A stretch of 64,000 nucleotides of DNA. It comes from an uncultured Gammaproteobacteria bacterium. Its GTDB lineage: Bacteria > Patescibacteriota > Patescibacteriia > Magasanikbacterales > JBBTXJ01. The DNA is taken from the NCBI GenBank assembly GCA_964610305.1, contig CAZSVL010000002.1:40522-104521 (forward strand), read 5' to 3'. Under the pieces are notes generated by a model. The model had not been told where the DNA came from. It did no database searches and saw only the letters and a program-made list of their open reading frames with translations. The first letter of the stretch is position 1, and each line of letters starts with the position of its first letter. Shown piece after piece: positions 47,995-64,000 of the stretch. A program made the position numbers and the translations under genes.

Positions 47995-49572
47995 ATGAAA
48001 TTACTAAGGAGCATTACCAGATATCAGCTCAGCATTGCTGGGCTGTTTGTAATGGCGCTTTTTTTGCTTCTCTTTAGGTTGGACATGCGTTCTTTTTGGA
48101 CGGATGAGTGGTATTCGTTTAGGTTTTTTGACATGAGTTTATTTGAGTATTTAAAGTATTATTGGCAACATCCTGATAATCATCCGCCTGGTTTTTATGC
48201 CATTACCACGTCTTTTGTTAATTTCTTTGGAAGATCAGATGTTGTAGTTAGGCTGCCAGCTGTTATAGGTGGTTTGTGGGCCTTTGTGGCGAGCGCTTTT
48301 CTTATTAAAGAGACGGTGGTTAAGAATAGGAGGGGTATTATGCTGCTCTCGTTGCTGCTTATAGCAACCGCTCCTTACTTGATTCTAATAGGACAGACGG
48401 CGCGTTATTTTACCCTTGCGGCAGGCGCTGGACTTTCAGTGCTATATGCAATGCTTAGATTAATAAAGAAGCCCAGCATAGCCAGAGGATTGTGGTACGC
48501 TTTTGCGCTTGTTGTTGTGGGTTACCTTGATTACCCAACTCTTTTTTACAGTGTTTGTGGGAGTGGGGCGGTCATAGCACTTCATTATTTTCGCAATCGA
48601 CAAAAGCGGGCAGTTTATACGTGGCTTGGGTCTGGCCTTCTTGCTGGTTTAGTAGTTTCCCCGCTTGTTCCTATTTTGCTCGCGGAGATCAGGGCAGAAT
48701 CTTTATCTGGCCCTGATGTGCTCTCTGGCGGTCTTATGGCGTGGGGCATGCGCGTGCTGTCTTACGGGTATGCTCTTAGTCACGGCATGATAAGCTTGCC
48801 CTTTGGTATTGTTACCGTGTTGTGGCTCGTCTTATTTGCTATACTGGGATTTATTTTTCTTAAAAGGCGAAGGGCGGCAATTCCTCGGTTAGCAGAGCTT
48901 GATTATGTAATAGTCTACGGAGCTGTGGGGCTCATCTTAAATACGCTCCTTTTTGCTGCGCTTGAGAGATATAGCCCTATAGCATTTCCGCGTTATGTGC
49001 TTTTGTCGCTTTATCTGCTGTTTATAGTACTTTCTGCCTTCATAATGCGGCTTTCTGCATCAAGGCATATCAAGGCCGTTCTAGCGGGTCTTTTAGTGGC
49101 AATTCACGTTTTTGGACTAAGCGCTTATTACAGCAGATCTCATTTTGTGGACGCAACTTTTTTTGCCGACAATAGGGGTATGTTCGCTTTCGTAAAAGAA
49201 AACGCGCAGGAGGGCGATGCCCTTTTGCTTTCTGATGATTTGCCGGAAGAGATTTATCGGTGGTATAAGGAGCGCTATTTTGAGGGTCTGGTTACCTATG
49301 ATGGTAAGATAGAGACGCCGGCCGATAGGATTTGGGTGGTGGCGATGGCACATGATTATGCGGCAGGCAGTTGGGGGTCTGACTTGTTTGTTCATGAACT
49401 TGTGGATCGTCTTGGGAGCACTCAATGGCACATAAGCAAAAGTAGATACGGTTCACCTCTTCATGATGAAGTGGTCGCTATAAAAAGCGGTGTTACAGGC
49501 GTTCAAAGTTATCTGTATAAGGTGGGAGCCTTTTTAGTGGAAAAGCGTGTTGAGCCGTTGCCAGAGCTGTGA
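47995..49572 (+). CDS. GT-C fold glycosyltransferase (ArnT/PMT-like, GT39/GT83-type), polytopic membrane protein
   Basis: Many TM helices. First periplasmic loop has the DE motif (FWTDEWYSF) typical of ArnT/PMT enzymes. Confidence 0.55.
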   Translation: MKLLRSITRYQLSIAGLFVMALFLLLFRLDMRSFWTDEWYSFRFFDMSLFEYLKYYWQHPDNHPPGFYAITTSFVNFFGRSDVVVRLPAVIGGLWAFVASAFLIKETVVKNRRGIMLLSLLLIATAPYLILIGQTARYFTLAAGAGLSVLYAMLRLIKKPSIARGLWYAFALVVVGYLDYPTLFYSVCGSGAVIALHYFRNRQKRAVYTWLGSGLLAGLVVSPLVPILLAEIRAESLSGPDVLSGGLMAWGMRVLSYGYALSHGMISLPFGIVTVLWLVLFAILGFIFLKRRRAAIPRLAELDYVIVYGAVGLILNTLLFAALERYSPIAFPRYVLLSLYLLFIVLSAFIMRLSASRHIKAVLAGLLVAIHVFGLSAYYSRSHFVDATFFADNRGMFAFVKENAQEGDALLLSDDLPEEIYRWYKERYFEGLVTYDGKIETPADRIWVVAMAHDYAAGSWGSDLFVHELVDRLGSTQWHISKSRYGSPLHDEVVAIKSGVTGVQSYLYKVGAFLVEKRVEPLPEL

Positions 49573-49585
49573 TAAGGTGTTTTGT

Positions 49586-49792
49586 ATGGAAGAAATGTTA
49601 GAACAAAAAAAAGAAGATCTGCAGCAGATCCCAGAGACAAATCCTGGTTTTTTTAGACAGTTTGCGCGTTTTTTACGCGTGAGAAAACTCTACTGGCTTA
49701 CCCCTATTGTACTCCTTCTTCTTTTGGTGGGAGTGCTTATTGTGGTGGGGCAAAGCTCTAGTGTCTCGCCTTTTATCTACGCTCTGTTTTAG
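49586..49792 (+). CDS. small single-TM membrane protein
   Basis: AAGGTG RBS before ATG 49586. MEEMLEQKK...LTPIVLLLLLVGVLIVV. Confidence 0.4.
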   Translation: MEEMLEQKKEDLQQIPETNPGFFRQFARFLRVRKLYWLTPIVLLLLLVGVLIVVGQSSSVSPFIYALF

Positions 49793-49797
49793 AAACA

Positions 49798-50502
49798 CTA
49801 GCGCTCCAGCCAAAGATCAGCGCCCACACGGAGACCTTCAAGCATCATGGCTTTAGTCATTTTTGATGAGCCGGCCGTGCGATCCGCAAAGGTGATAGGA
49901 ATTTCTTTGAAGCGCGCTCCGCATTTCATAGCTCTGAATTTCATTTCAATTTGAAATCCATAGCCATCAGCCTTGATGGTGTTTTTTAAAATGCATTCTA
50001 AAAGGTCTCTTTTGTAACCAACAAATCCAGCAGTCGCATCTTTAGTTGGCAGTCCAGTTGCCGCTCGGGCATAGAGGTTTGCCGCCTTTGATAAGAGGAG
50101 GCGGTAAGAAGAGAACTCAGTAACGTTTCCACCGGGGACATAACGTGAACCAATGACCACATCATGGTTTGATAGAGCACTGATCATTGAGGATAAATAA
50201 CGTGGATGGTGAGATAAATCCGCATCCATTTGAACGATAGCGCTAATTTGTGAATCTGCTAGCACTTTTATAAATCCATCAATATATGACTGACCGAAGC
50301 TTTTAGGTTTTTGCCGCTTAAGTAGCTCTACAGCATTGTTTTTTTGTTGGTAGGATTCAACGGTCGTCGCGGTTCCGTCTGGCGATCCGTCGTCAACAAC
50401 TAAGACGTTTATGTCAGAATTCGCATATTGAAATATAGTATCCAATGTTTTTTCAATGGTGAGGGCTTCGTTGTACGTTGGTATTATAATGGTAGTTTTC
50501 AT
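49798..50502 (-). CDS. GT2 polyprenyl-phosphate glycosyltransferase (Dpm1/ArnC-like)
   Basis: IIIPTYNEALTI...LVVDDGSPDGT...QMDADLSH is the Dpm1-type DxD GT2. Confidence 0.75.
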   Translation of the reverse strand: MKTTIIIPTYNEALTIEKTLDTIFQYANSDINVLVVDDGSPDGTATTVESYQQKNNAVELLKRQKPKSFGQSYIDGFIKVLADSQISAIVQMDADLSHHPRYLSSMISALSNHDVVIGSRYVPGGNVTEFSSYRLLLSKAANLYARAATGLPTKDATAGFVGYKRDLLECILKNTIKADGYGFQIEMKFRAMKCGARFKEIPITFADRTAGSSKMTKAMMLEGLRVGADLWLER

Positions 50503-51950
50503 CGGCCCATGGCTTTTGCAATAATGTGGACGGTTTTAAGCACGATAACAATGTCCATCAGAAGGGATCGGTATTTCATATAGTATAGATCATATTCCAG
50601 TTTCACCAGATTTTCTTCTAGTGTTGCGCCGTAGCGGTAGCTTACTTGTGCCCAGCCGGTAAGACCGGGGCGAATAAGATGTCTAATACTATAGTAGGGC
50701 ATGCGTGATTGCAGTTGATCAACAAACGCAGCGCGCTCAGGTCTCGGGCCAATAAGATTCATTTCTCTTTTCAGGATATTCCATGATTGAGGAAGCTCAT
50801 CAATTCTGAGTTTTCTTAGCCATTTACCCACTTTGGTTATGCGCGTGTCATTAGCACTGGCAAATTGTGGGCCGCTCTCTTCTGCCAGCCCATCTTTACC
50901 TTTTGCATACATGGTTCTGAGTTTGTAAATGGTGAACGGCTTATTATGCAGGCCAACGCGTTTTTGTTTGATAAAAAGAGGTCTGCCTGATTCTGCTAAA
51001 ATAGCGATCGCCACAAAGGGAAGCAAAATGAGTAGTAGTAGGCCGAGCGCTATGGCAAAGCCAACGTCTGCAACCGTGCGCAGCGCATCGTAATATTGCT
51101 TTCGGCTTTCCCGCAAGTTTTGCCAAAACCAGCTCTCGTTTACCATATCGGCATTTACCCGGCCGGTTATGTGTTCATAAAAAGTAGCTAAATCTGCCAT
51201 TTCCACGCGCCAGAAAAGTAACTCATAGAGTTCTTTTTCTAGCTCTCCTGCGCGCGCAAGGTGAGGAGCGATTACCACGGTGTGGATTTCTTTGATGTCT
51301 ACTACTGATCTAATGCGCATGGGGTCCGAGAAAAGCTGCACGCTAGAGCTGATGTGGTGGGGAATAAGGTGCTGCTCTGGTTCCATGATTGCAGCCGTAG
51401 TAAAACCAAGCTGAGGATCTTTTGCAAATGAGGTGACAAGGTCCTCAACACGCGGATGAAATCCTAAAAATAGGATGGTGCGACGCAATAGTTTTGGACC
51501 AAGTGAGTGATTAAAAAGGGCGCGCCAAAGGGAAATCAGTACTATGCTAAGCAGTACCGTTAGTACTAAATTGGTTTTTGGCGTGATTCTAAAGGCGGGA
51601 ACAAAGTAAAAGAACATGAGCCCCACAAAAAAGTTTGCGATGAAGCTAATGAGAAGATTTTGGAAAAAACGAATTGAATTTTTTGCCTTCCTAATATCGT
51701 AGAGGCCATTGATAAAAAAGATTATAACCCACAGAGCAAAAACGATCCCAAAGGCAACTCGGTGCGTACTCCAATAGGGGCCAATGTCAAGCGTTTTGTA
51801 GCGAATCATAAGAGCCACAAGAAGCGCTCCTTGCATGAGCAATAGATCGGCAGCGGCTAGAATAATTTGTTTAAACTTTATGACCCGGTTATTCATAGAT
51901 GCCTTGAGCTTATCAAAAAGAGGGGTTTTTTTCAAGATAGACCCTTGCAC
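50499..51950 (-). CDS. initiating polyprenyl-phosphate sugar-1-phosphate transferase (WbaP/CpsE Bac_transf family)
   Basis: C-terminal Bac_transf domain (PLFIKQKRVGLHNKPFTIYKLRTM...DELPQSWNILKREMNLIGPRPE...GLTGWAQV). Confidence 0.8.
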   Translation of the reverse strand: MQGSILKKTPLFDKLKASMNNRVIKFKQIILAAADLLLMQGALLVALMIRYKTLDIGPYWSTHRVAFGIVFALWVIIFFINGLYDIRKAKNSIRFFQNLLISFIANFFVGLMFFYFVPAFRITPKTNLVLTVLLSIVLISLWRALFNHSLGPKLLRRTILFLGFHPRVEDLVTSFAKDPQLGFTTAAIMEPEQHLIPHHISSSVQLFSDPMRIRSVVDIKEIHTVVIAPHLARAGELEKELYELLFWRVEMADLATFYEHITGRVNADMVNESWFWQNLRESRKQYYDALRTVADVGFAIALGLLLLILLPFVAIAILAESGRPLFIKQKRVGLHNKPFTIYKLRTMYAKGKDGLAEESGPQFASANDTRITKVGKWLRKLRIDELPQSWNILKREMNLIGPRPERAAFVDQLQSRMPYYSIRHLIRPGLTGWAQVSYRYGATLEENLVKLEYDLYYMKYRSLLMDIVIVLKTVHIIAKAMGR

Positions 51951-51984
51951 AGGAGCGAGGTGGCTGATATAGTTGATCTATTCT

Positions 51985-53985
51985 ATGTTTAAAAGCAGTA
52001 TTACAGTGGCAGCAGGGCGTTTCTTGGCGCTCGCTTTTTTAATAGGAAGTCTGGTGGCAACACCGGTTTTTGCTAAGCTGCCAAATGATCCCTATACTTT
52101 GGGTTCGTGGTTTTTTGATATTATCAATGCAAAGGAGGCGTGGGATCTTCAGACAAGTGCGCGCGATATTGTGGTGGCGGTGATTGATGGGCCGGTAGAC
52201 ACTAACCATCCAGAGCTAAAGAATAATCTATGGAGCAATCCTGCAGAGCGCAAAGACGGCGTGGATAACGATGGCAACGGGAAGACTGATGATGTTATAG
52301 GGTGGGATTTTATACATATGGATGGAGACCCTTCTCCTCAAATGGAGGGCGCGCGTGATACACTGGCGTTTCATCATGGGACAACCGTTGCGGGGATTAT
52401 TGGGGCAGAGGGGAATAATAAAACGGCGGTATCAGGCATGGCCTGGGATGTAAAAATAATGCCACTTCAGGTATTAGATGAAGATGGGAGCGGTTTGGTT
52501 GATCATGTGGTTCAAGCGGTAGAATACGCCATAGAGCAGAAGGTGGATATCATAAATTTGAGTTTTGTGGGTGATGATTATGATCATGATTTTTATAAAG
52601 TGGTAAAGCGAGCTTACCATGAGGGAATTGTGGTGGTTGCCGCTTCTGGCAACGATGGCAATGGAAAAGGCGGAGGAAACTTGAATTTTAAGAGGCGCTA
52701 CCCGGTGTGTTTGGATAGCGATGAGCAAGTACCCTTTTTACTTGGTGTAGCTTCTACTGATAAGAGGGATGAGCCCTCTATTTTCACCAATCATGGTAGT
52801 GGATGCATAGATATCTCTGCGCCCGGTTCTGGCATAACAAGCTTGTCAGTTCATGATCCAAGCAACGGTTTTCCCTCTCAAATACTAACGGGAATTTCTG
52901 GTACCTCTATAGCGGCACCGTTTGTCTCAGGAGTTGCTGCGCTCATAAAACAGCGCCATCCTGATATGAGCGCTGGATCAATTATTGATGTTATAAAGAG
53001 ATCTGCAGATGATATTGATGATAAATCAGATTTGGCGCGTGGTGCAATGGGCGCTGGAAGATTAAACGCCCAGAACGCATTAAAGTTAGCGGCGCAGGAT
53101 CGTGGTGGGCATGGGGCAGAATTTGTAGTGATGTTTGATGGTGGTCAGTGGACCAATGTGAGGCATTTTGCTCATGATTATAAAAAGATAACGCAGTTTA
53201 TTACTCCAGTGCCGTTTGCAGATATCATCACACTGGAGATTATTGATATCAACAGAGATGGCGTGCAGGAGGTAGTTTACGCTTACGCGAGTGATGAAGG
53301 TACGCGTTTGGTAGCGTATTCATTGGAGGGTTACAAAATTTTTGAATCGGTTATTTCTGCCGAAGTGGTAAGAACGGTAGGCTTAGCAGGAGCAGATGTG
53401 CTGCGCAATGGGGACGGTGGTGTTGTGGTGGGATTTCCTTCTGAGGGTCAATTCAAGATAGTAGAGTATAAGGCTGATGGAGATATTTTTCACTGGTTTA
53501 TTGGTGGGGAACTAGAGAGCGATCTAGAATCTGTTTCAGTTTCTTTTTCTGATACGGGATTTATTTATGGTCTAGCACACTACGGAACTCATACCGTTCG
53601 GTCAACATGGAATTTTATAGGCGCATTTGATAAATCAAAACGTTTTGATGTGCCTGATGGAAATGCACGCCCTATTGCGGGCAATGGTAACGGTAGTGTT
53701 TTGGCATACGGAGCCGCCAAGGAGCGCTCTTCAGCGGTGACCGTTATTAAAGAAGGAGAAGCTGCGGCAACCACTTTTTCACCGTATGGCAGTTTTTTGG
53801 GCGGTAGTTCAGTTACCCTTATTGATTGGGATGTAGATGGTCAGGAGGAAGTTGTTGTGGGGGCTGGGCCAGGCGGAGGACCTCATGTTAAAATATTTTC
53901 TTTGGAGGGTGAGCTAGAGGGAGAGTTTCTAGCGCATGGACCGCAATATCATCACGGAATTTTTGCCCGCGCCTTTTTAAAGTAG
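51985..53985 (+). CDS. secreted subtilisin-like serine protease (S8) with C-terminal FG-GAP/VCBS-like repeats
   Basis: Catalytic D, H and S blocks (VAVIDGPVDTNHPEL; HHGTTVAGII; GTSIAAPFVSGVAALI). Signal peptide present. Confidence 0.8.
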   Translation: MFKSSITVAAGRFLALAFLIGSLVATPVFAKLPNDPYTLGSWFFDIINAKEAWDLQTSARDIVVAVIDGPVDTNHPELKNNLWSNPAERKDGVDNDGNGKTDDVIGWDFIHMDGDPSPQMEGARDTLAFHHGTTVAGIIGAEGNNKTAVSGMAWDVKIMPLQVLDEDGSGLVDHVVQAVEYAIEQKVDIINLSFVGDDYDHDFYKVVKRAYHEGIVVVAASGNDGNGKGGGNLNFKRRYPVCLDSDEQVPFLLGVASTDKRDEPSIFTNHGSGCIDISAPGSGITSLSVHDPSNGFPSQILTGISGTSIAAPFVSGVAALIKQRHPDMSAGSIIDVIKRSADDIDDKSDLARGAMGAGRLNAQNALKLAAQDRGGHGAEFVVMFDGGQWTNVRHFAHDYKKITQFITPVPFADIITLEIIDINRDGVQEVVYAYASDEGTRLVAYSLEGYKIFESVISAEVVRTVGLAGADVLRNGDGGVVVGFPSEGQFKIVEYKADGDIFHWFIGGELESDLESVSVSFSDTGFIYGLAHYGTHTVRSTWNFIGAFDKSKRFDVPDGNARPIAGNGNGSVLAYGAAKERSSAVTVIKEGEAAATTFSPYGSFLGGSSVTLIDWDVDGQEEVVVGAGPGGGPHVKIFSLEGELEGEFLAHGPQYHHGIFARAFLK

Positions 53986-53989
53986 TAGT

Positions 53990-54940
53990 ATGAAAAAAAA
54001 GATATTGATTGGTGGGGGTGTAGCCTTGGTGGCACTTTTTTTTCTCTTGAAGTGGCAGCTAGATACACAAGCCATTGATGTGGATTCTTTGCAAGAAGTG
54101 GTAGCTTCAGATTTTTTATGGCCGTCTGGCCCTCCACTCTTGGTGCTTAAAGACTTGCAAGTAGATTTTAAAAAAACAACGTTTGTACTTGATGCTGGAA
54201 GTTTGACTCAACAACCCTTTTCCTCTGATTGGCATTTTAGATTTGTCAATCATAATGCGCTGTATGCCTTTACAAAAAAAAGGGAAATGGGACGCTCAGA
54301 ATTGCAAACACAGATTTACCGGATAGACCCAAAAGAATTGCTCCCGTTTGCTTTTAAACGATTTGGATCCAGAAGGCTGCTAGATCTGTATCCTAACAAA
54401 GATGGATCGCGGGTAGTTGTTATGTCTCGTATAGGCGAGACATCCAGCTACGAGTTTTGCAAATTGGCTTTTGGAGACCCTGAAAGGGTGGGGTGTCAGC
54501 ATAGACTAACGGTTACAGGGGAGAACATTAAATTTGCCTGGGATGATCAGGAAATGTTTGCTTTAACGTCAGAAAAAGAGGGTCACATAAATGTTTACGG
54601 ATCCGCCAGCGAACTAACGAGTCTAAGTGTTGATGAGCAAAAAGAGGAGTATGCGCTCTGGGAGGCAAGAATGAACAAGGACCGGGCCGCCAAGGTGCCG
54701 GCAAGAAGTTGGCGTGGATACTTGCTTGTTGATGATATGAGTGGCCGAACGCTGTTTAAAGCAAAATCTGCTAGAGCAGTTATTGTTGGATTAGACCGCG
54801 TCTTGCTTCTTGTCGATGGTAGATTGCTTGCCATAGATACAAAAAATCGCACTAAAGCGACCATTTTAGCTAATCCTAGTTTGAATGCGTCAACCATTTT
54901 AGTAGGAGGTGTTCAGGGAGATACGTTTATTTTTAATTAA
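53990..54940 (+). CDS. hypothetical membrane-anchored protein
   Basis: N-terminal TM. Immediately downstream of the S8 protease. Confidence 0.45.
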   Translation: MKKKILIGGGVALVALFFLLKWQLDTQAIDVDSLQEVVASDFLWPSGPPLLVLKDLQVDFKKTTFVLDAGSLTQQPFSSDWHFRFVNHNALYAFTKKREMGRSELQTQIYRIDPKELLPFAFKRFGSRRLLDLYPNKDGSRVVVMSRIGETSSYEFCKLAFGDPERVGCQHRLTVTGENIKFAWDDQEMFALTSEKEGHINVYGSASELTSLSVDEQKEEYALWEARMNKDRAAKVPARSWRGYLLVDDMSGRTLFKAKSARAVIVGLDRVLLLVDGRLLAIDTKNRTKATILANPSLNASTILVGGVQGDTFIFN

Positions 54941-55460: not shown

Positions 55461-55474
55461 GTTATACTTGTCTA

Positions 55475-55822: not shown

Positions 55823-57153
55823 GAAGGAGAATTTTGTCCAGGACTGTTTGGTGGTGTTTGGTTGCTAGGAGGGGGTGTTGATTGTTGGTTTGGCGCTGCT
55901 TGTGCCACTTTTTTTGTTTTACGGTGATGAGAAACACTGTAGGCTATTGAGCCGCCGGCAATGAGGAGGATCAGACCAACGGCAGTAGCAAAGAGTGTGT
56001 TTTTGTTGGCAGAAAAGAAATTTAAAACCTCAAAACTAACGTCTCTTTTGTTGCTTTGATGAACACCATATGAAAGTTGGCCTGTAATGTAATACGTGCC
56101 TGCGTTTTCTGCCCTGAACGTGTGGGTAAATGATTGAGAATCGCTCACGGGAACAAAAAGGGCATCAGTAGAGGCAGTATCAATGAGAACCTCATCGTGG
56201 TATATGTCAAAAATCATCTTTGCGTCGACGCCACTTTCACCTACGTTTTCTGCTGCTGCATTTATTCTAACAAGTTCTCCTTGTCTGTATTCATCTTTCT
56301 CTACCGTAAATTCTGATAGATTAACCTCCTGCGCCAGGCTTCCTTTTGGAAAGACGCGAAAGCCAGAGATTTTTTCTATGATGGGATTATTGTCTTCGTC
56401 ATAGAAAACTACGGTGGCTTCATAAGAGCCTACGTCAAGCTCAAGATCAGTTTGTGCGGTTACCACCTGCCGCGTAAAAGCACCAATTATAGGTATGTTT
56501 TCAGCCTGTACACGCGCATTAAAAATAAAGTCTGGATTTTCTTTATCAATTACCGTGAGCTGAATCAGAGATGGGCGTGCTGCTACGTTACCGGTATTAT
56601 TCATAATAAAACGAAAGTCAATGTTGCGACCAACTTCTGAATTGTTGACTGAAATGTCCGAAATGTCGTAGATTACGCGCTCGTCATTAGTTACATGAAA
56701 AACAATAGTTCCTTGCGCGCCTGCGTACACTTTTACGGTAGTACCTCCCTGGCTATCGTCTGCTGCGCTTGCGGGTGGAATTACGGTTCCGGTAACGGTG
56801 GCGTGATACGTTCCGGCAGCCAGGTCTCTTGGCTCTATAAAAAATTCAAAGTTGGTCATGCGATCTCCCGGCTCAAATCCAACCGTCATGTCATGTTTTG
56901 GTTTTATGTATTGGGCCGCTGGGCCGCCAATTTCAACACTAATTTTTTCACTTCCATCAGTGCCGCCACGTGTAAAAAGAACAAAACCAGGAACTGATGA
57001 TCCTGAGAGAACATTATCTGCTCTAAATTGGGCCGGTGTGATACCAAAGGCCAACGTAGATTGCGGAAAGGCAGCTGTAAGAAGTAGCAAACTGACAGCT
57101 GCACAGAAAAAAAGTATCTTAAAAAAAAGGTCCTTTCTCAAAATATTTATCAT
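55816..57153 (-). CDS. cell-surface protein with signal peptide, beta-sandwich repeats, C-terminal TM anchor and Pro/Gln/Ser-rich tail
   Basis: N-terminal signal, mature end ...AFGITPAQF, C-terminal TM (LFATAVGLILLIAGGSIAY). Paralog of 57166-58095. Confidence 0.55.
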   Translation of the reverse strand: MINILRKDLFFKILFFCAAVSLLLLTAAFPQSTLAFGITPAQFRADNVLSGSSVPGFVLFTRGGTDGSEKISVEIGGPAAQYIKPKHDMTVGFEPGDRMTNFEFFIEPRDLAAGTYHATVTGTVIPPASAADDSQGGTTVKVYAGAQGTIVFHVTNDERVIYDISDISVNNSEVGRNIDFRFIMNNTGNVAARPSLIQLTVIDKENPDFIFNARVQAENIPIIGAFTRQVVTAQTDLELDVGSYEATVVFYDEDNNPIIEKISGFRVFPKGSLAQEVNLSEFTVEKDEYRQGELVRINAAAENVGESGVDAKMIFDIYHDEVLIDTASTDALFVPVSDSQSFTHTFRAENAGTYYITGQLSYGVHQSNKRDVSFEVLNFFSANKNTLFATAVGLILLIAGGSIAYSVSHHRKTKKVAQAAPNQQSTPPPSNQTPPNSPGQNSPSQ

Positions 57154-57165
57154 ACATTCATTATA

Positions 57166-58095
57166 TCATTTTTTTTTAAGTGAGTCTTGTGAAAAGCGGT
57201 AGAGATGAAAGAGTGATCCGCACAAGGCTAGAACCACAAGTAAAATAAACTTTTTTTTATGTTGAGCGAGGCGCTCAGTGAGTGTGAGTGGAGTAAGGAC
57301 AGTAAAAGTAACGGTATCGCTATCAATAAGAGCATTTTGTTTGTCATCAAGAAATGTTAGTTGTGCTGTGTGTTTTCCACTCCCAACTACATGATCAAAG
57401 GTGGGGAAAATGCTTGTTTCAGAAAATGGAGACAAGGTAATACCATCTTTTGGCTGGTAATATATTGTTTCTGTGGTGCCGTCAGGAGAGATGAGCTTTA
57501 CAGCGAGAGATGTAGCATAAAAGGGAATATTGCTGTCATTTACCCCCAAGAAAGACATTTCTACATTCTCTCCGGCACTTTTTGCTCCTATGCTTACTTG
57601 CTCAATAGCGCGTTTGTTTATGATGACCTCATTGGTTATAGAAAAATGTATGCGAGCTCCAACGGCGTGTATTACATTGAGTGTGGGGCCGTTTTCTTGC
57701 TTTCTTGCAGGTTCAAAAGAAAAAGCAGCAATTATCTCATAAGAGCCTGCAGGCAACTTTGAGCCATCAAGGCTAAAAGGGTAGGACAGTGTTGTTTTTT
57801 CTGTTTTCCAGGGAACAGATGTTCCAAGAGGGGTTTTAAGAGCTTGTTTTCCGTTTCCGCTAATGTGCACGTTTACCACCATATCCTCAGTTGGAACCTT
57901 TGCATTAGAAAGATGAAAAGCGCGATGAATATCGGCGGATGTGTGGATATTATCAATGGTGATCGCAGAGGGGCTTACACCAAACGCATACACACTCTGA
58001 ACTCCTAAAAAGGTGCCGAGGAAAAATATTGTGAGTGCAAGAATTTTTGTGTTTAGGAATCGGCTATGGCCGTAAAGACTATGGTATGTGTGCAT
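57166..58095 (-). CDS. cell-surface protein, paralog of 55816-57153, with C-terminal TM anchor
   Basis: Mature N-terminus ...AFGVSPSAITIDN matches the AFGITPAQFRADN of its neighbour. C-terminal TM plus KKK. Confidence 0.55.
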   Translation of the reverse strand: MHTYHSLYGHSRFLNTKILALTIFFLGTFLGVQSVYAFGVSPSAITIDNIHTSADIHRAFHLSNAKVPTEDMVVNVHISGNGKQALKTPLGTSVPWKTEKTTLSYPFSLDGSKLPAGSYEIIAAFSFEPARKQENGPTLNVIHAVGARIHFSITNEVIINKRAIEQVSIGAKSAGENVEMSFLGVNDSNIPFYATSLAVKLISPDGTTETIYYQPKDGITLSPFSETSIFPTFDHVVGSGKHTAQLTFLDDKQNALIDSDTVTFTVLTPLTLTERLAQHKKKFILLVVLALCGSLFHLYRFSQDSLKKK

Positions 58096-58958
58096 GTGCC
58101 GCCGGCGCCCTTGTCAGGCGCTTTTAGTAATGTATAAAGAGTTTTTGTTGATTCAGATGCGTCATTTGTTCTCTGAAGCAGATTCAATTGAACCGTGCTA
58201 GCATCGTTGGTAAATTCCGTGCCATCGCCATAGGTAAATCCAGAGGTGGCGCTGTAATGGGTGCTGGTTGTGTTAATGATGCCCGCTGTACAGCTCATGT
58301 TATCGGCACTTTGAGAAGCGTCCATGTCTCTGTTGCCTGTATTGGTGAATAAGAGGGATTTTTCAGCAGATTGTGCCCCTAGTGTTAGGGTTCCATAATC
58401 AACATTCTCAGTAATGTTAAGCGCCAACAGGCTGTTGTATTCCCATGTGTCGGTGCCCTCATCAGAGGCGGACGCGTCATCTTCAACTTTTATATATGAT
58501 GTCCAATTAGTACCAGAGTGAGGCGCCCCGGCATCGGTGGGGTCTGCGTAGTATTGCAGTGCAATGGAATACTCATAGACAATATCTTGATCAGCTCCGC
58601 CGCTGCAGCCGCTGAGTGTTACGGTGCCAGCGTAGCAATCATTATTGTCTGCAGAGCATGCTTCAGCTGAGGCAACGTTGGTACGGTGCATTACTTCTGT
58701 CCATTGAGAAACAGCGTCTATCTCCTCACAGCCGTCAAGATCAGAGGCGGTTCCGTGCACGTAGACGGTAACGGTGGTGTTTTCAGAAGGCGATATGGAA
58801 GATACATCTGATCCTAAAGATGTTAGGGATGTGGTTATAGTATCAATGGTGGGAGCATTATTAGCCTGCCCTTCCGCAGCGTCAAACCATAAAAAAAAGC
58901 TAAGCATCACTGATGAGCCTATAAGAATTTTTTTGAGTACGTTGGGTATTGTCACGCA
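58053..58958 (-). CDS. secreted T/S/D/G-rich protein with conserved Cys pairs (paralog A)
   Basis: Signal peptide when started at GTG 58958. The C-terminus ...GGTCTHTIVFTAIADS parallels its paralog. Confidence 0.5.
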   Translation of the reverse strand, partial: CVTIPNVLKKILIGSSVMLSFFLWFDAAEGQANNAPTIDTITTSLTSLGSDVSSISPSENTTVTVYVHGTASDLDGCEEIDAVSQWTEVMHRTNVASAEACSADNNDCYAGTVTLSGCSGGADQDIVYEYSIALQYYADPTDAGAPHSGTNWTSYIKVEDDASASDEGTDTWEYNSLLALNITENVDYGTLTLGAQSAEKSLLFTNTGNRDMDASQSADNMSCTAGIINTTSTHYSATSGFTYGDGTEFTNDASTVQLNLLQRTNDASESTKTLYTLLKAPDKGAGGTCTHTIVFTAIADS

Positions 58959-58983
58959 TATAGTATAGCATAATACACGGATC

Positions 58984-59012
58984 AAAAAACCCTCTGATAG
59001 AGGGTTTTTTGT
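58984..59012. terminator. bidirectional terminator
   Basis: AAAAAACCCTC-TGATA-GAGGGTTTTTT. Confidence 0.7.
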
Positions 59013-59029
59013 GCCATCGTAAAAGTGTT

Positions 59030-60085
59030 TTAGTTAGCGTGATCTGCGTCTTGCAGAGAGGTAAGGGTAATGGTACCCGTACAGGTTCCGCTTACACCAG
59101 TGGTAGGTGTATGGATAGCTAGATATAGCTGCGTGCTGCTAGAGGTAGAGCTAGTTGTTCTCTTAGTTAGTCCAAGAGAAATAGTCGTAGATTCTGATGT
59201 TCCCAAGTTCCTAGCGGTACCGGTAGCAAGTCCAAATTCTGACTCTGTTACGTTAAAGTAGATTCTTGAGAGTGAAATGGTACCAGCTCCGCATGACAGC
59301 GTTCCACCAGATTTGGTTACATCCAGTGTGCGGTTTCCGGTGTTACCAATTCCCAGCGTTTGGCGTCCTTTTGAACCGGTGCTGGATGCCAAAGGCATGG
59401 TGCCAAAGTCAATTCCAGTAGTAAGTTCCATGGCGAGTAGTCCGCCCAATTCAAATGCTTTAGAGGCAGTTCCAGCGTCACCATCGCTGTCATCAGTTAC
59501 TGCTGCAAAAGCTGCCCATGTAGTATCAGAGAATTGAGAATCCGCGTCTGTTGGCTCCATGTAGTGCGGCATGTGATACTTAACGTGATAGTTCATTTCA
59601 GTATCTGCAGCAGATGCGCAGTTAGAACCATCTGATCCTGCGTTTGGTGAGTTTGCATTTCCTAAAGTGGTAGACACCATATCAGTTCTTCTGCAGCTAT
59701 CTATGTCTTCCGTGCAAGAGCTTGTGTTGCTCACAGAGGCGCGGTACACAGAGAAGTCCCAGTTTCCTCCATCAGCATCTGTGCTTGGGTTATCAATTTC
59801 TTGGCAGCTGTTTTCATCCGTAACTTTTCCGTGAATGAACAGATCAGTAGGAGTTACTCCTTCTGCAAGCCAAATGGTTGTGGTGGCTGATCCGTATTCT
59901 GTAGCAGAAACGGTAATGTTGTTTATTACCGGATCTACATTACTTATGGTGACAGATCCGGTGCTGTCGTCAGCAGAGGATCTTGTCAGGATTAAGGCTA
60001 TCACTGCGGCTACGGCAATTATCGTAAAGGCAATTCCGTAAACCAAGTGAGCTGAGCCTTGCTTTGAGTTTGATGGCATACGCAT
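59030..60085 (-). CDS. secreted/anchored T/S/D/G-rich protein with conserved Cys pairs (paralog B)
   Basis: N-terminal signal-anchor. Shared motifs with paralog A (TGNR.LD; GTCTGTITLTSL). Confidence 0.5.
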   Translation of the reverse strand: MRMPSNSKQGSAHLVYGIAFTIIAVAAVIALILTRSSADDSTGSVTISNVDPVINNITVSATEYGSATTTIWLAEGVTPTDLFIHGKVTDENSCQEIDNPSTDADGGNWDFSVYRASVSNTSSCTEDIDSCRRTDMVSTTLGNANSPNAGSDGSNCASAADTEMNYHVKYHMPHYMEPTDADSQFSDTTWAAFAAVTDDSDGDAGTASKAFELGGLLAMELTTGIDFGTMPLASSTGSKGRQTLGIGNTGNRTLDVTKSGGTLSCGAGTISLSRIYFNVTESEFGLATGTARNLGTSESTTISLGLTKRTTSSTSSSTQLYLAIHTPTTGVSGTCTGTITLTSLQDADHAN

Positions 60086-60117
60086 GGTTTATGCAAGGTT
60101 TTAGTAAAAGTTAGTGC

Positions 60118-60354
60118 TTATTCTTCTATCTGTAGATTGACCTCTACAGAGTTATTTGAGCCTTCAGAGGGTGGAGTTATCTCTCCAATCTGCAGGCGTA
60201 CTTCCGTACTGTTGTTGCTCCCCTCCGATTGCACCATTTCATCAGGGGCAGCATCAGCAGGCTGCGTTGCGCTATTGCGCGTCGCAAGGTTTGCTACAAG
60301 TACGATAACGGCCGCTACAGCCACCACCGCAGCAATCCTACTGTATTGTTGCAT
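60118..60354 (-). CDS. small membrane-anchored protein with duplicated SEGSNNS.EV.LQI.E motif
   Basis: N-terminal TM plus two tandem 16-aa repeats. Has its own extended -10 promoter. Confidence 0.4.
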   Translation of the reverse strand: MQQYSRIAAVVAVAAVIVLVANLATRNSATQPADAAPDEMVQSEGSNNSTEVRLQIGEITPPSEGSNNSVEVNLQIEE

Positions 60355-60380
60355 AGCGTTGTTGATTAATGGATGGCATT

Positions 60381-60389
60381 AGTATACCA
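60381..60389 (-). promoter_or_regulatory. extended -10 element TGgTATACT
   Basis: On the minus strand about 25 nt upstream of ATG 60354. Confidence 0.4.
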
Positions 60390-60436
60390 CATTTCACTTC
60401 TTCTTTTTTTTGTAAATAATTTTTGATGTGGATAAG

Positions 60437-62080
60437 TTATAACTGCGTCCTTCTATCGCTCCAAAGAAATAGTAGAGACATGCCACAGATAGCAATGATG
60501 ATAGACAAAGTGGTGGCAGGACTTCTTTCTTTTTTACTGAGCTGTATGGATATGCGACGCGCCTCTTTTTTATCAACTGTTTTCACAAAGCTGTTTATAA
60601 AAGCGGTGTTGCCAGCTCTATCATGGGCGGTGATACCGAGTGTTATTTTTTTTGTCCCTCTTGTTTGTATTTCGTAGGGAGACTTGTCAATGGTGACGGC
60701 GCTCATTTCATTTTCTTGGATACTAAAATGGGATATTCCAGAGAGCTCATCAATCGCCTGGATATCAGCTATAAGGTGTGTGGAACGGTCAATGAGAAAG
60801 GCCTGATACTCCACGCCATGTATTTGAGGAGGTGTTGAGTCAATTTTTAGTTGCAGATGTGCCGTTGTTTCTGCCGACCCGCCTTCTGGTTTTACGTGGG
60901 CATACCATATGCCATCTTCTAATTCTTGCGTCAGAGAAAGAGCCTCTTGTGGTTCGCCTGCTGGGTCAGTAAGCGGATTTTGATCTATAGCGGCATACGC
61001 CCTGTCTGCTCCCTGCAGTTGCCATGAGATTTCTGCTGATGTGGCGCTATACCACTGGTATTCGCTAGGATGCGTTGGAGAGTTCAGTGATGTGACGCTG
61101 GGCTCTGAAGGGGCAATTTTGTCTTCCGGCGCATCGGGCGCCTTTTTTGGAACAGAAAGCGTTAATGTTTGGCTTTTGGGAGTGAGTGTTTTTCCCGTTA
61201 GAGCTTCATATATCCAAGAGCCGGCGTCCATTTCAATTTTATGCGACCCCTCATTGAGAATTTTAAACGTAACGCGCATGACCGGTACATCGCCGTGACG
61301 GTATCCACTTCCGGGCACACCACCAGAAAAGTGGATTTTTCCACGTTCATCATTAACGGGTGTTTGGTTCCATATGTTAAAGCCTGAATGGTCATATTTT
61401 ATATCCAGCACTTGCAGATCCCCATCAGGGAACGATACAGCACCTTCTAGAGCGTTTATATGGTTGTTTCCCGTGTTTATAGACACATCCACCACCAACA
61501 CTTCTGTAACGCCCTTTGTAACTACACTAGAGGCCGCTAGCTGAGCGGAGGCAATAATTTCTCTATGTTGCTTTATGAGCCATTGAGGGGTTTGCGTTGG
61601 CTCTACCTCTGGTAGTTCTGGCAATGGAGTAAGTGCAGGACACGCCGCCGTATTTAAAAAGGGGAGAAGTTGCGCCAGATCTGCTCCGCCAATAGACCCG
61701 TCTTCATTTAAGTCAAAAACGCCTTCCGATCCTCCCCAAAAAAGGCTCATGAGCGATAAATCCTTACAGTCTATTTCGTTATCGTCATTAAAGTCCGCTT
61801 CTCCTTTTTCTAGTTTTTTTATGGGGATAAGGCTGGGTGTTTCTTTTCTTGGTGGGGAGCCGCCATACGCCGGGTTAGGGTCTTCATTGTCCTGCGGATT
61901 GTAAGAGGATTCTGATGAAGAAGACGATGAGGATGAGCTTGATGATTCTTCTGCATCACCTATTCTTACAACCAAATAGGCAAAATCTGCCACTGCAATG
62001 CTTGGCGCCAGTACACCAAAAAGAAGCACCAAAAGGGAGCCTATTGGAAGGGCTTTTGTTTTAAGAAAATTAAAACCCAT
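60437..62080 (-). CDS. secreted dockerin-domain protein with poly-Ser linker, cohesin-like/Ig-like beta-sandwich region and C-terminal TM anchor
   Basis: Signal peptide MGFNFLKTKALPIGSLLVLLFGVLAPSIAVA. Two Ca-binding dockerin loops (DFNDDNEIDCKDL and DLNEDGSIGGADL). C-terminal TM. Confidence 0.6.
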   Translation of the reverse strand: MGFNFLKTKALPIGSLLVLLFGVLAPSIAVADFAYLVVRIGDAEESSSSSSSSSSSESSYNPQDNEDPNPAYGGSPPRKETPSLIPIKKLEKGEADFNDDNEIDCKDLSLMSLFWGGSEGVFDLNEDGSIGGADLAQLLPFLNTAACPALTPLPELPEVEPTQTPQWLIKQHREIIASAQLAASSVVTKGVTEVLVVDVSINTGNNHINALEGAVSFPDGDLQVLDIKYDHSGFNIWNQTPVNDERGKIHFSGGVPGSGYRHGDVPVMRVTFKILNEGSHKIEMDAGSWIYEALTGKTLTPKSQTLTLSVPKKAPDAPEDKIAPSEPSVTSLNSPTHPSEYQWYSATSAEISWQLQGADRAYAAIDQNPLTDPAGEPQEALSLTQELEDGIWYAHVKPEGGSAETTAHLQLKIDSTPPQIHGVEYQAFLIDRSTHLIADIQAIDELSGISHFSIQENEMSAVTIDKSPYEIQTRGTKKITLGITAHDRAGNTAFINSFVKTVDKKEARRISIQLSKKERSPATTLSIIIAICGMSLLFLWSDRRTQL

Positions 62081-62125
62081 CTTTCTTTGCAGCAAGTATA
62101 CCATAGGTACTCCATAAATAATGTG

Positions 62126-62131
62126 GTATAA
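62126..62131 (+). promoter_or_regulatory. -10 element TATAAT placed 10 nt before ATG 62142 (possible leaderless mRNA)
   Basis: TGGTATAATCTTCTCACTATG. No SD sequence is present. Confidence 0.35.
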
Positions 62132-62141
62132 TCTTCTCACT

Positions 62142-63158
62142 ATGGGTGACAATATCTCATTTGAGAAAAAAAATGTTCTTGTCACAGGAGGGGCCGGCTT
62201 TATTGGTTCTCTGCTGTGTGAAGAGCTTATAAAGGAAGCGCGTGTTATTTGTATGGATAACTTTTTATCCAGCAGCGCGTTTAACATAGACCATTTGTTG
62301 CCTTACGATGACTTTGAGTTTGTTAAGCATGATGTTTCCGTACCTTTTAAGCTCACCGATTTTTCAGAGATTGAAAAATTTGCCGTAGAGTTTCAGGGAG
62401 TGCAAGAGGTGTATCATTTGGCATGTCCCACAGCACCAAAACATTTTGATGAATTTAAGGTAGATACGCTTAAGGCAAACTCGCTGGCAATGATAAATAC
62501 GCTAGAGATTGCCAAGCAATACAAAGCCAAATATTTATTTGCCAGCAGCTCTGTGGTGTATGGTCCGCCAAAAGAAAAGGACATGAGATTTGCAGAGAAT
62601 TTTACGGGTGTGGTGGATCAGCTCAGCAAGCGTGCTTGCTATGACGAGGGAAAGCGTTTTGGCGAGACATGCGTTGATACGTACCGGCAAATGTTTGATC
62701 TTGATGTAAGGATCGCCAGGATTTTCCGCACGTATGGCCCACGCATGCAACTGCGCGAGGGGCGCATGATTCCTGATTTTGTTCTCAGTGCACTTGATGG
62801 AAAAGATTTGGTTATTCATGGAGATGAAACGTTCTCTACCTCTGTTTGCTATGTTTCAGATATTGTAGATGGTCTTATAAGGCTGATGCACAGGAATGAG
62901 TACTTGGGACCGGTAAATATTGGAGATGATAAACGTTACCTGATTTCAGAAATCGCTCAGAAGATTATTGATTTGTTAGAATCAGAGTCCAAGATTACGT
63001 ATGAGGCAAAAATTGCCTTTATGACATCACTTGGTTTGCCTGATCTTACAAAAGCGCGCGAAGAGTTGGGTTGGGTGCCGCTTGTTCGTTTAGAGGATGG
63101 TCTGCGTAAGGTAATTGACTACACTATCGCAAACAAGGAGTCTTTGCGGGAATTTTAA
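62142..63158 (+). CDS. UDP-glucuronate decarboxylase-like SDR (UXS / ArnA-C-like)
   Basis: VLVTGGAGFIGS; ASSSVVYG; ACYDEGKR (YxxxK); RIARIFRTYGPRM..GRMIPDF. All closely match UXS-family blocks. Confidence 0.75.
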   Translation: MGDNISFEKKNVLVTGGAGFIGSLLCEELIKEARVICMDNFLSSSAFNIDHLLPYDDFEFVKHDVSVPFKLTDFSEIEKFAVEFQGVQEVYHLACPTAPKHFDEFKVDTLKANSLAMINTLEIAKQYKAKYLFASSSVVYGPPKEKDMRFAENFTGVVDQLSKRACYDEGKRFGETCVDTYRQMFDLDVRIARIFRTYGPRMQLREGRMIPDFVLSALDGKDLVIHGDETFSTSVCYVSDIVDGLIRLMHRNEYLGPVNIGDDKRYLISEIAQKIIDLLESESKITYEAKIAFMTSLGLPDLTKAREELGWVPLVRLEDGLRKVIDYTIANKESLREF

Positions 63159-63159
63159 G

Positions 63160-63245
63160 TCAGGCATTAGGCAGTAGGCATTAGGCTTCAGTGATCGCAC
63201 CTTAAAAGTGCGCTAATGCCTGAGGCCTACTGCCTAATGCCTCAA
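63160..63245. repeat. nested palindrome built from (TAGGCA)-type repeats: AGGCATTAGGCAGTAGGCATTAGGC ... GCCTACTGCCTAATGCCT, with inner hairpin CGCAC..GTGCG
   Basis: Read directly. It sits between the UXS stop and the terminator. Confidence 0.6.
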
Positions 63246-63268
63246 AAAAGGCGCTTGCCTTTTTTTTG
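63246..63268. terminator. bidirectional terminator
   Basis: AAAAAAGGC-GCTT-GCCTTTTTTTT. Confidence 0.7.
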
Positions 63269-63289
63269 ATCCTGATGTTCACTACTAGG

Positions 63290-63946
63290 ATGAATGACAC
63301 GGTAGTGGTAATCCCTGCGTACAATGAGAGCGGTAGAATAGGGCAGACTATTAAAGGGCTTGCTGATTTGCCCTATGATCTTGTGGTGGTAGATGATGGC
63401 TCTTCTGACGGGACTGCTCAGGCCTGCGCTGGCGCAACGGTTTTGCGGCACGGTCTAAATAGAGGGCAAGGGGCTGCTCTTCAGACCGGGACACAATGGG
63501 CGCTGCAAAGAGGCGCCTCTTACGTGGTACACTTTGATGCTGATGGTCAGTTTGAGCCATCAGATATAAAAAGAGCGCTTGACATAGTGCGCAGTACAGA
63601 TATCCACATTATTTTGGGGTCACGATTTTTGGGAGAGAGCAGCGAGCTCCCCTTTACTAAGCGCTACATTATTTTTCCAGTGGCACGCGTCATAAATTGG
63701 GCTTTTTCTGGCTTGTGGCTCTCAGATGTTCATAACGGCTTTAGAGTTATGACGAGCCGTGCCGCATCTGAAATAAATATTGAGGTTGATCGCATGGCTC
63801 ACAATACGAACATTTTAAGCCAGATCAGAAAAAAGAAGTTGAGCTATCAGGAAATGCCCGTACGGGTATATTATCATAGGTACGGACAGGGTGTTGGCGG
63901 AGGTTTTAAGATAATGGGAGATTTACTCATGGGTTGGTTTTCGTAA
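63290..63946 (+). CDS. GT2 polyprenyl-phosphate glycosyltransferase (GtrB/ArnC-like)
   Basis: VVVIPAYNESGRI...LVVVDDGSSDGT...HFDADGQ. Confidence 0.75.
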   Translation: MNDTVVVIPAYNESGRIGQTIKGLADLPYDLVVVDDGSSDGTAQACAGATVLRHGLNRGQGAALQTGTQWALQRGASYVVHFDADGQFEPSDIKRALDIVRSTDIHIILGSRFLGESSELPFTKRYIIFPVARVINWAFSGLWLSDVHNGFRVMTSRAASEINIEVDRMAHNTNILSQIRKKKLSYQEMPVRVYYHRYGQGVGGGFKIMGDLLMGWFS

Positions 63947-63948
63947 AT

Positions 63949-64000
63949 TATGGCATTTATTCAAACAGCGCTGCTGCTTTTTGTAGCATTTGCAGCGTAC
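63949..64000 (+). CDS. 5' fragment of a probable GtrA-like small membrane protein (continues beyond window)
   Basis: Begins 2 nt after the GtrB-like stop. MAFIQTALLLFVAFAAY... is a hydrophobic GtrA-like start. Confidence 0.3.

Follow-up and report, generated by a model that had tools for sequence, protein, structure and literature searches.

Does the surface-glycan locus on contig CAZSVL010000002.1 (assembly GCA_964610305.1) load a pentose onto a lipid carrier, or do its sugar-loading genes serve another chemistry? The window, by which we mean the whole 64,000-nucleotide stretch analysed (positions 40,522 to 104,521 of the contig), encodes a short-chain dehydrogenase/reductase (SDR) of the extended type that resembles UDP-xylose synthase (UXS), two glycosyltransferases of family 2 (GT2) and one membrane glycosyltransferase of the GT-C type. 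An earlier note on this DNA joined these into a single pathway, with the SDR making a pentose, a GT2 loading it onto polyprenyl phosphate and the GT-C enzyme transferring it outside the membrane. The five open reading frames (ORFs) behind that proposal are all present, and its general logic, in which a GT2 places sugar on polyprenyl phosphate and a GT-C enzyme uses it outside, holds for a window with two such GT2s and one GT-C-like protein. At family level its labels stand for the SDR, the two GT2s and the GT-C protein; the fifth gene, called GtrA-like, is a DUF2304 gene. We favor, with a probability of about 55%, two separate lipid-linked sugar modules within one large surface-glycan locus of a Patescibacteria host related to Uhrbacteria and Magasanikbacteria. 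Module A (62142 to past the window end) comprises the SDR, the adjacent GT2, the DUF2304 protein and a following glycosyltransferase of family 4, and module B (about 45007–51950) the GT-C protein and the second GT2. The nearest named relatives of the window proteins are indeed Patescibacteria, namely Uhrbacteria and Magasanikbacteria. Patescibacteria form the candidate phyla radiation; they are tiny and mostly uncultured, and their cell-surface chemistry is almost unknown.

The SDR (62142–63158, forward strand, 338 aa) is derived from UXS. Among solved proteins its best match is human UXS1 (hUXS1, PDB entry 2b69), with an E-value of 2e-67 and 40% identity, and the next family follows at 1e-25. 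GalE and WbpP reach 72–93 bits, against 230 bits for UXS. The dTDP-glucose dehydratases, which the earlier note had named as the alternative placement, do not cluster with the SDR in searches of the PDB or of representative proteins. The protein retains the GxxGxxG motif (GGAGFIGS), the triad Ser118/Tyr147/Lys151, the YDEGKR motif, Ser119 and Arg144. At positions 79, 84, 118, 119, 120, 144, 147, 151, 176, 213 and 277, it reads T-F-S-S-V-R-Y-K-R-T-G, while canonical UXS reads A-Y-T-S-E-R-Y-K-N-R-R. The substitutions in the window protein and its clade are Glu120 to Val, Arg277 to Gly, Asn176 to Arg or Thr (Arg in the window, Thr in most clade members), Arg213 to Thr or Gln, Tyr84 to Phe and Ala79 to Thr.

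This pattern is shared by the relatives. Among the 119 closest homologues, position 120 is Val or Ile in every one and position 277 is Gly in 113; Glu120, Asn176, Arg213 and Arg277 are not among the five commonest residues at their positions, which cover 118–119 of the 119 proteins. Comparison of 60 canonical UXS sequences with 60 clade members yields the positions that are at least 90% conserved in the former and retained by at most 10% of the latter: E120, P129, N176, R188, G209, Q211, T212, R213, E244, D273 and R277. Glu120, Arg277, Asn176 and Arg213 are present in 100% of the canonical set, and Arg188 and Asp273 in 98%. Most of the lost positions fall in the C-terminal substrate domain. 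Among the best 150 representatives of 1.84 billion proteins, roughly the top twenty have the residue pattern of the window protein, and the remainder mostly show the canonical UXS pattern, unchanged or altered only at 79, 84 or 118. The SDR is best placed in a sister clade of UXS.

Within the UXS group, Glu120 and Arg277 do not vary; they are needed to distort the ring, to protonate C5 and to hold back the 4-keto intermediate (PMC3438964). Single mutants of hUXS1 lose 100- to 1000-fold in kcat; the E120A mutant is slowed about 100-fold and still forms UDP-xylose, and R277Q stalls at UDP-4-keto-pentose (PMC3438964). UDP-glucuronic acid (UDP-GlcA) 4-epimerases have Ser and Thr in place of Glu120 and Arg277 (PMC3438964). 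The decarboxylase signature further includes Tyr84, Arg144, Asn176 and Ser119 (PMC12820599, Table 3). Because the clade has lost residues that are invariant or nearly so in UXS (Glu120, Arg277, Asn176, Arg213, Tyr84, Arg188 and Asp273), decarboxylation to a pentose is not inferable, and the pentose product that had been proposed is not supported. By homology, Asn176, Arg213 and Asp273 would correspond to the positions through which E. coli GalE, as an epimerase, grips the phosphates and ribose of UDP. With an intact NAD motif and triad, the enzyme is in all likelihood active, and its substrate or reaction is predicted to differ from the conversion of UDP-GlcA to UDP-xylose. The name 'UDP-glucuronate decarboxylase', which JGI automated annotation gives to many proteins of the clade, is not justified by the active-site pattern, a point of practical weight for annotation.

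The GT2 of module A (63275–63946, forward strand, 223 aa) is a PpgS/GacI-like protein and a predicted polyprenyl-phosphate sugar synthase. It matches PF00535 at 3.8e-23, carries a DAD motif within HFDADGQF and has no predicted transmembrane (TM) helix. Its best curated match is the NCBIfam family PpgS (polyprenyl-phospho-GalNAc synthase), at 1e-44 and 152.7 bits over positions 1–206 of the 226-position profile; this lies well under the equivalog cut-off of 370 bits, marking a homologue and not an equivalog. A profile of the family matches dolichol-phosphate mannose synthase (DPMS), ArnC and GtrB among solved structures, and the named ones among its 5950 homologues are mainly Patescibacteria. 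A start at the ATG at 63290 was discarded; an exact look-up of that version was empty, and the recorded gene begins at 63275.

The next gene starts 3 bases past the GT2 stop, in the same orientation (63949–64000). Only 17 codons lie inside the window, and the remainder was read from a Logan contig, L002, that is identical over the overlap read; there the gene runs on to a full length of 116 aa and is followed by a gene of glycosyltransferase family 4 (GT4). The full protein belongs to DUF2304 (PF10066, E-value 9.7e-21, 74.5 bits), and its assignment to GtrA (PF04138) is thereby set aside. Since the presumed GtrA-like gene is a DUF2304 gene, no flippase is identified in the window. The GT2 GacI is found in a complex with the DUF2304 protein GacJ, which stimulates synthesis of GlcNAc-P-undecaprenol (Rush et al., 10.1101/180810), and the DUF2304 homologue Rv3632 likewise stimulates PpgS (PMC3485146). 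The product of the 63949 gene is predicted to be a small membrane activator subunit of this type. Both characterised GT2 relatives, GacI and PpgS, use UDP-linked N-acetylhexosamine (UDP-HexNAc) (10.1101/180810, PMC3485146). In Mycobacterium and Corynebacterium, two more genes belong to the system, one for another glycosyltransferase and one, adjacent, for an SDR epimerase (Rv3634c/cgp_0391); Rv3779/cgp_0658 is the GT-C of the system, and no flippase is known there (PMC9671496). The distant gene number suggests, in our own reading, that Rv3779/cgp_0658 is encoded elsewhere in the genome.

The gene order of module A is conserved. A scan with a GT2 alignment, taking one genome per species, gave 80 loci, with the GT2 callable in 78 and informative names mostly from Patescibacteria; neighbors at these 78 loci were counted by ORF and BLAST analysis. 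In 49 loci the gene immediately upstream of the GT2 encodes a UXS-like SDR, and in 60 such a gene occurs no more than four genes away. On the downstream side, 69 of 75 loci have a DUF2304-like gene. A GT4 gene occurs within four genes downstream in 51 of the 78, and a divergent gene for a polyprenyl-phosphate sugar-1-phosphate transferase (PGT) upstream in 21. The order SDR-GT2-DUF2304-GT4 is kept at 45–60% protein identity in dozens of species with varied flanks, including division and cell-wall (dcw) genes. Reverse look-ups from two SDR homologues (60–62% identity) return the SDR-GT2-DUF2304 trio again. Such adjacency is far beyond chance. The conserved version of the locus in Magasanikbacteria also contains a GlmU-like nucleotidyltransferase, and in other lineages the module adjoins DUF4012 and MreB genes.

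A GT-C partner was also sought beside the GT2-DUF2304 pair. We compared 27 large polytopic proteins (26 neighbors from GT2-DUF2304 loci and the window GT-C protein) and found PMT_2 in three, Wzy_C in two, MurJ in one and DUF families in three; most have no Pfam match. A conserved GT-C enzyme beside the pair was rejected, as only those three match PMT_2. Polytopic proteins of about 350–385 aa in variant loci are FtsW and MraY. In several genomes (L060, L070–L074, L079 and L081) only a T2SSE-type ATPase gene stands between the GT2-DUF2304-GT4 module and the genes MurD, MurG, FtsW and MraY; this neighborhood hints that the decorated polymer is wall-associated. One Patescibacteria lineage (L116–L118, 4482–7023) has a true GtrA_DPMS_TM gene and two tandem SDR copies with the non-canonical signature upstream of GT2-DUF2304-GT4-GT4.

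A mechanism can be proposed for module A. The soluble GT2, held at the membrane and activated by the three-helix DUF2304 protein, would move a sugar from its nucleotide to polyprenyl phosphate at the cytoplasmic face. The adjacent SDR would tailor the sugar by NAD-dependent chemistry at C4, as the counterpart of the epimerase Rv3634c/Cgp_0391. The lipid-linked sugar would then be flipped and used by a membrane transferase to decorate a glycan that is primed by the PGT of the locus and built or extended by GT4 enzymes. A HexNAc-type or C4-modified sugar is more likely than xylose, because UDP-HexNAc is the substrate of both characterised GT2 relatives and the UXS-defining residues are missing from the SDR. 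While the family assignments, the gene order with its conservation and the residue patterns are observed directly, we infer the donor sugars, the acceptors, the flipping step and the identity of the GT-C enzyme that serves module A.

The GT-C protein itself (47995–49572, forward strand, 525 aa) belongs, by our assignment, to a different module. It is probably a PMT_2-like membrane glycosyltransferase, as judged from its homologues, fold matches and topology. Homologues at 35–37% identity carry PMT_2 (PF13231); one of them (37% identity, E-value 4e-88 to the query) matches PMT_2 at 3.4e-13, and four others are annotated with PF13231. A weak NCBIfam match to Agl23 is found at 1e-6. Searches of Pfam and PDB sequences with the protein alone and with an eight-homologue profile gave nothing useful. 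The topology, which the earlier note had left to be predicted, would comprise about 11 TM helices with the N-terminus inside and a 145-aa outer C-terminal domain (hydropathy and positive-inside rule); the short inner loops hold 15 Lys and Arg residues and the short outer loops only one. The first outer loop contains the acidic motif W35-x-D37-E38, invariant in eight homologues. In a Foldseek search of the PDB, the top 22 matches to its low-confidence AF2 model are all GT-C enzymes, including STT3, PglB, ArnT (5ezm), AglB, AftA and Emb, with E-values from 2.5e-5 to 4e-2 and TM-scores of 0.3–0.48. The family placement draws on the homologues together with this low-confidence model.

Next to the GT-C gene, on the reverse strand, lies the second GT2 (49798–50502, 234 aa), a Dpm1/Ppm1-like protein with no TM helix, a PF00535 match at 1e-27 and the motif DADLSHHP. 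Residues 1–225 align to P. furiosus DPMS (5mlz) at 5.5e-28, the best solved match; no NCBIfam equivalog was reached. The gene overlaps by 4 bases the stop of the priming PGT gene (50499–51950, reverse strand; Bac_transf 2.9e-55; TIGR03025 323.5 bits, cut-off 295.55). The pairing of the two transferases is conserved. In seven of eight informative metagenome loci, the GT-C homologue has a Dpm1-like GT2 at most a few genes away, and the pairing holds down to 23–25% GT-C identity. Conversely, a homologue of the window GT-C protein lies within 8 kb of a GT2-DUF2304 pair in none of the 78 loci. Because of the conserved pairing and this absence, the natural donor synthase for the GT-C protein is its Dpm1-like neighbor and not the PpgS-like GT2 12 kb away. 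The 12-kb link that had placed both GT2s and the GT-C protein in one pathway is not conserved; the GT-C gene keeps company instead with the Dpm1-like GT2 and a carbamoyl- or methyltransferase cassette.

The other members of this cassette are a NodU/CmcH-type carbamoyltransferase (46230–47993, forward strand; Carbam_trans_N 1e-77, Carbam_trans_C 4e-68) and a small DUF5989 membrane protein (49586–49792, forward strand, 68 aa; PF19451 4.8e-20), which has the same position in L001 and L003. Locus L003 is syntenic, with a GT4 gene, a 270-aa UDP-glucose dehydrogenase (UGDH)-like gene, a small membrane protein, the carbamoyltransferase, the GT-C gene and the DUF5989 gene, followed by the Dpm1-like GT2 and the PGT on the opposite strand. 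Where the GT-C protein is 35–39% identical, the loci again contain this GT4 gene and the UGDH-like gene, which is 71–72% identical where found. In the four relatives that lack the carbamoyltransferase, a methyltransferase directly follows the GT-C gene, as if the cassette swapped its tailoring enzyme. A 140-aa membrane protein with about three to four hydrophobic segments (45821–46243, forward strand) belongs to no assigned family and has a 52%-identical homologue at the same position in L003; its identification as GtrA- or SxtJ-like has no Pfam or NCBIfam support, and GtrA does not match even at E 10.

In module B, the Dpm1-like GT2 would make a polyprenyl-phosphate hexose, probably mannose, and the PMT_2-like GT-C enzyme would transfer it outside the membrane, with the carbamoyltransferase (a methyltransferase in relatives) as an associated tailoring enzyme. 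From sequence comparison, the 49798 product is likely a mannose-type polyprenyl-phosphate hexose synthase that serves the 47995 product.

Module B begins with a truncated UGDH-like dehydrogenase (45007–45819, forward strand, 270 aa). Of the UGDH domains it retains the NAD-binding and central ones (PF03721 and PF00984 only), along with the catalytic Cys motif GGKCLPKD, and stops where the C-terminal UDP-binding domain should begin. The NCBIfam NDP-sugar dehydrogenase score is 161.7 bits, under the cut-off, and the protein aligns to residues 97–316 of the 444-aa UGDH 3vtf. In four related loci it is 71–91% identical where the GT-C protein is only 35–59% identical, and for this reason the gene appears to be under strong constraint. 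The same identity and the intact catalytic motif rule out a pseudogene. In L116, a 273-aa protein with the same two UGDH domains lies 4 kb from the SDR.

Several observations count against the two-module reading. The nearest characterised relatives of the SDR are decarboxylases and not epimerases, its retained Ser119 and Arg144 make a uronic-acid substrate possible, and the recurrence of the truncated UGDH-like gene hints at uronic-acid chemistry; the slow production of UDP-xylose by hUXS1 E120A (about 100-fold slower; PMC3438964) points the same way. For the GT2 of module A, the score under the PpgS cut-off indicates that its sugar may differ from HexNAc, and a terminator-like hairpin parts its gene from the SDR gene. 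In module B, the GT-C protein itself has no Pfam match, even at E 10, and its AF2 model is of low confidence (pLDDT 59.7, pTM 0.56). The Dpm1-like GT2 is translationally coupled to the PGT and could extend a diphosphate-linked glycan instead. As to activity, every donor and acceptor in both modules rests on inference.

The original pentose proposal can be put in its strongest form as follows: UDP-glucuronate is decarboxylated by a functional SDR, polyprenyl phosphate receives xylose (or a 4-keto-pentose derivative) from the GT2, and the 47995 GT-C enzyme transfers the pentose outside the membrane. UXS is by far the closest family to the SDR, both among solved proteins and among the 1.84 billion representatives, and YDEGKR, Ser119 and Arg144 are retained. 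Many clade members bear the decarboxylase name from JGI, linkage between the SDR and a GT2 of the polyprenyl-phosphate type is tight, and the locus also includes a UGDH-like gene, albeit one whose product is without a UDP-binding domain. The hUXS1 mutants cut both ways: E120A still gives UDP-xylose and R277Q gives UDP-4-keto-pentose, while single changes cost 100- to 1000-fold in kcat (PMC3438964), and the proposal must account for the loss of every signature residue except Ser119 and Arg144, with Glu120, Arg277, Asn176, Arg213, Arg188 and Asp273 each retained by at most 10% of the 60 clade members. Moreover, both characterised GT2 relatives use UDP-HexNAc, the GT-C gene co-occurs with the Dpm1-like GT2 and not with the SDR-GT2 pair, and a literature search for lipid-linked xylose donors found no relevant paper in the collection searched, its single match being an unrelated one on chondroitin sulfate glycosylation. 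We consider this pathway improbable. A variant makes the pentose only after lipid loading. The UGDH-like protein is without a UDP-binding domain and the SDR clade is without its nucleotide-contact residues (Asn176, Arg188, Gln-Thr-Arg213, Asp273 and Arg277), so that the two enzymes might act on the polyprenyl-phosphate hexose from the GT2/DUF2304 pair, with C6 oxidation followed by C4 oxidation and decarboxylation, to yield a lipid-linked pentose or 4-keto-pentose with no UDP-pentose intermediate. Sugar remodelling at the lipid stage has a precedent in the epimerisation of decaprenyl-phosphoribose by DprE1/DprE2; we know of no case of uronate decarboxylation at that stage, and hold the variant to be highly improbable.

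In the opposite direction, the SDR may be a plain C4 epimerase of UDP-HexNAc or UDP-hexose, with the GT2/DUF2304 pair making polyprenyl-phosphate GalNAc or GlcNAc in strict analogy to PpgS and with no uronic acid or pentose involved. PpgS is the best family match of the GT2, the module of Mycobacterium and Corynebacterium has an SDR epimerase beside PpgS and its DUF2304 protein (PMC9671496), and the Magasanikbacteria version includes the GlmU-like nucleotidyltransferase. Residue 120 of the SDR is small or neutral (Val/Ala), as in epimerases; UDP-GlcA 4-epimerases have Ser/Thr at 120/277 (PMC3438964). The SDR nevertheless stems from the UXS branch and not from GalE/WbpP (72–93 versus 230 bits), and the analogy would demand a function not known for the UXS scaffold. 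To our knowledge no epimerase is built on that scaffold, and Asn176, Arg213 and Asp273, presumably the UDP-holding residues of E. coli GalE, are also lost. The strict analogy is possible, though on balance unlikely. Finally, the SDR, the GT2 pair and the GT-C protein might merely be neighbors in a large mixed glycan locus and serve unrelated glycans. Numerous GT4s, several Wzy_C proteins and a Gmd-Fcl fusion are encoded in the window, a terminator-like hairpin stands between the SDR and GT2 genes, and a surface-protein block of about 8 kb separates modules A and B. Against this, the order SDR-GT2-DUF2304-GT4 persists at 45–60% identity across dozens of species with differing flanks, and the GT-C/Dpm1-like pairing persists to 23–25% identity. 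Chance co-location is weakened for the SDR-GT2-DUF2304 trio and stands for module A versus module B; for all of the genes together it is barely credible.

The closest known systems to module A are PpgS/Rv3632/Rv3779 and GacI/J/L. The former, PpgS (Rv3631)/Rv3632/Rv3634c/Rv3779 for galactosamine on M. tuberculosis arabinogalactan and cgp_0391/0393/0394/0658 in C. glutamicum, shares the short soluble GT2 with a DUF2304 partner, which in that system is co-transcribed with the GT2 and stimulates it. It also shares the SDR gene in the cluster, the further glycosyltransferase gene nearby, the location of the GT-C gene elsewhere and the lack of an identified flippase. Module A differs in that its SDR derives from UXS and not from GalE, with a remodelled pocket, its GT2 falls under the PpgS equivalog cut-off and its Patescibacteria host has no arabinogalactan. 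The likeness to GacI/GacJ/GacK/GacL, which add the GlcNAc side chain of the S. pyogenes group A carbohydrate, lies in the GT2 with DUF2304, in a lipid-linked sugar that decorates a separately primed and built glycan and in the cell-wall glycan locus; in some relatives the module stands beside FtsW, MraY and MurG. Unlike the Gac system, no Wzx-type (GacK) or GacL-type gene adjoins the GT2-DUF2304 pair in the window, and the SDR is an integral neighbor, whereas GacI uses unmodified UDP-GlcNAc.

The remaining comparisons are more distant. The SDR resembles UXS (EC 4.1.1.35; human UXS1, 2b69) in its fold, 40% identity, NAD motif, triad, YDEGKR, Ser119 and Arg144, and departs from it at 79, 84, 120, 176, 213 and 277 and in the clade-wide loss of Arg188 and Asp273. 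The Arn (ArnA-F, ArnT) and phage Gtr (GtrA, GtrB, GT-C) systems share the logic of a lipid-phosphate-sugar GT2, flipping and an outer GT-C enzyme. The parallel to Arn drawn earlier goes no further: among the window ORFs from position 3921 on that are 110 aa or longer, Pfam scans reveal neither an ArnB-like aminotransferase nor the formyltransferase domain of ArnA, and neither ArnD nor ArnE/F; the window has no GtrA. Unlike ArnC and GtrB, the window GT2s are without C-terminal TM helices, and the GT-C gene is unlinked to the SDR-GT2 pair. Module B resembles the Dpm1/Ppm1 and PMT/PMT_2 systems, with a Dpm1-like domain (DADLSHHP) next to a PMT_2-like GT-C protein that has an acidic motif in the first outer loop. 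It differs in a GT-C protein that has diverged beyond the reach of Pfam and has the carbamoyltransferase and DUF5989 on its flanks, in the coupling of the Dpm1-like gene to the PGT and in a sugar for which mannose is only predicted.

While GT2/DUF2304 donor systems for lipid-linked sugars are known, a UXS-derived SDR that has lost the residues defining UXS is unusual. The distribution of the genes shows a GacI/GacJ- or PpgS-type module to be widespread in Patescibacteria, usually with a dedicated UXS-derived SDR and often beside the cell-wall and division genes MreB, FtsW and MraY. The compact set of three genes, SDR, GT2 and DUF2304, could reveal a surface sugar of these organisms, and the SDR bears on whether an extended SDR works without the usual nucleotide-binding residues.

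The SDR and GT2 genes are separated by 116 bases that contain a terminator- or attenuator-like pair of hairpins (63162–63265, forward strand). The first (63162–63242) is a near-perfect 81-nt hairpin built of GGCATTAGGCAGTAGGC repeats, with a folding energy of -60.3 kcal/mol and a z-score of -6.9. The second (63244–63265) is a small GC hairpin with a T-run. The close relative L007 conserves the small hairpin and is without the large one. A repeated element or known RNA was rejected for the 81-nt hairpin; it is a single copy in the window, where Rfam reports only a transfer-messenger RNA (tmRNA) elsewhere.

Between the modules, an S8 subtilase, secreted or anchored (51973–53985, forward strand; Peptidase_S8, 3e-47), lies upstream of the SDR. 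An S8 peptidase is found within four genes upstream of the GT2 in 36 of the 78 species-level loci, and in most relatives the peptidase and SDR genes adjoin; in the window, a block of about 8 kb is inserted between them. This block (53990–62287) encodes an S26 signal peptidase (54933–55496, reverse strand). Five or six further products carry a signal or TM segment at the N-terminus, and several of them have a C-terminal TM anchor as well. These proteins match no significant Pfam family, with sub-threshold hints only, and could be glycosylated or protease-processed surface proteins.

By Pfam scans the window as a whole is a dense surface-glycan locus, with many GT4 enzymes, five Wzy_C-type proteins, the priming PGT, a Gmd-Fcl fusion and secreted proteins. 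A tmRNA gene (3098–3498, reverse strand; Rfam RF00023, 81 bits) is absent from the ARAGORN output. The five Wzy_C (O-antigen ligase/polymerase-like) proteins, of 470–785 aa, are encoded at 12335–13753, 14981–17041, 29753–32038, 32080–34392 and 34346–36703; one bears TPR repeats, and five is an unusual number for one locus. In the Gmd-Fcl protein (41894–43918, forward strand), GDP-mannose 4,6-dehydratase and GDP-fucose synthase are joined in one chain of 674 aa, and each half exceeds its NCBIfam equivalog cut-off.

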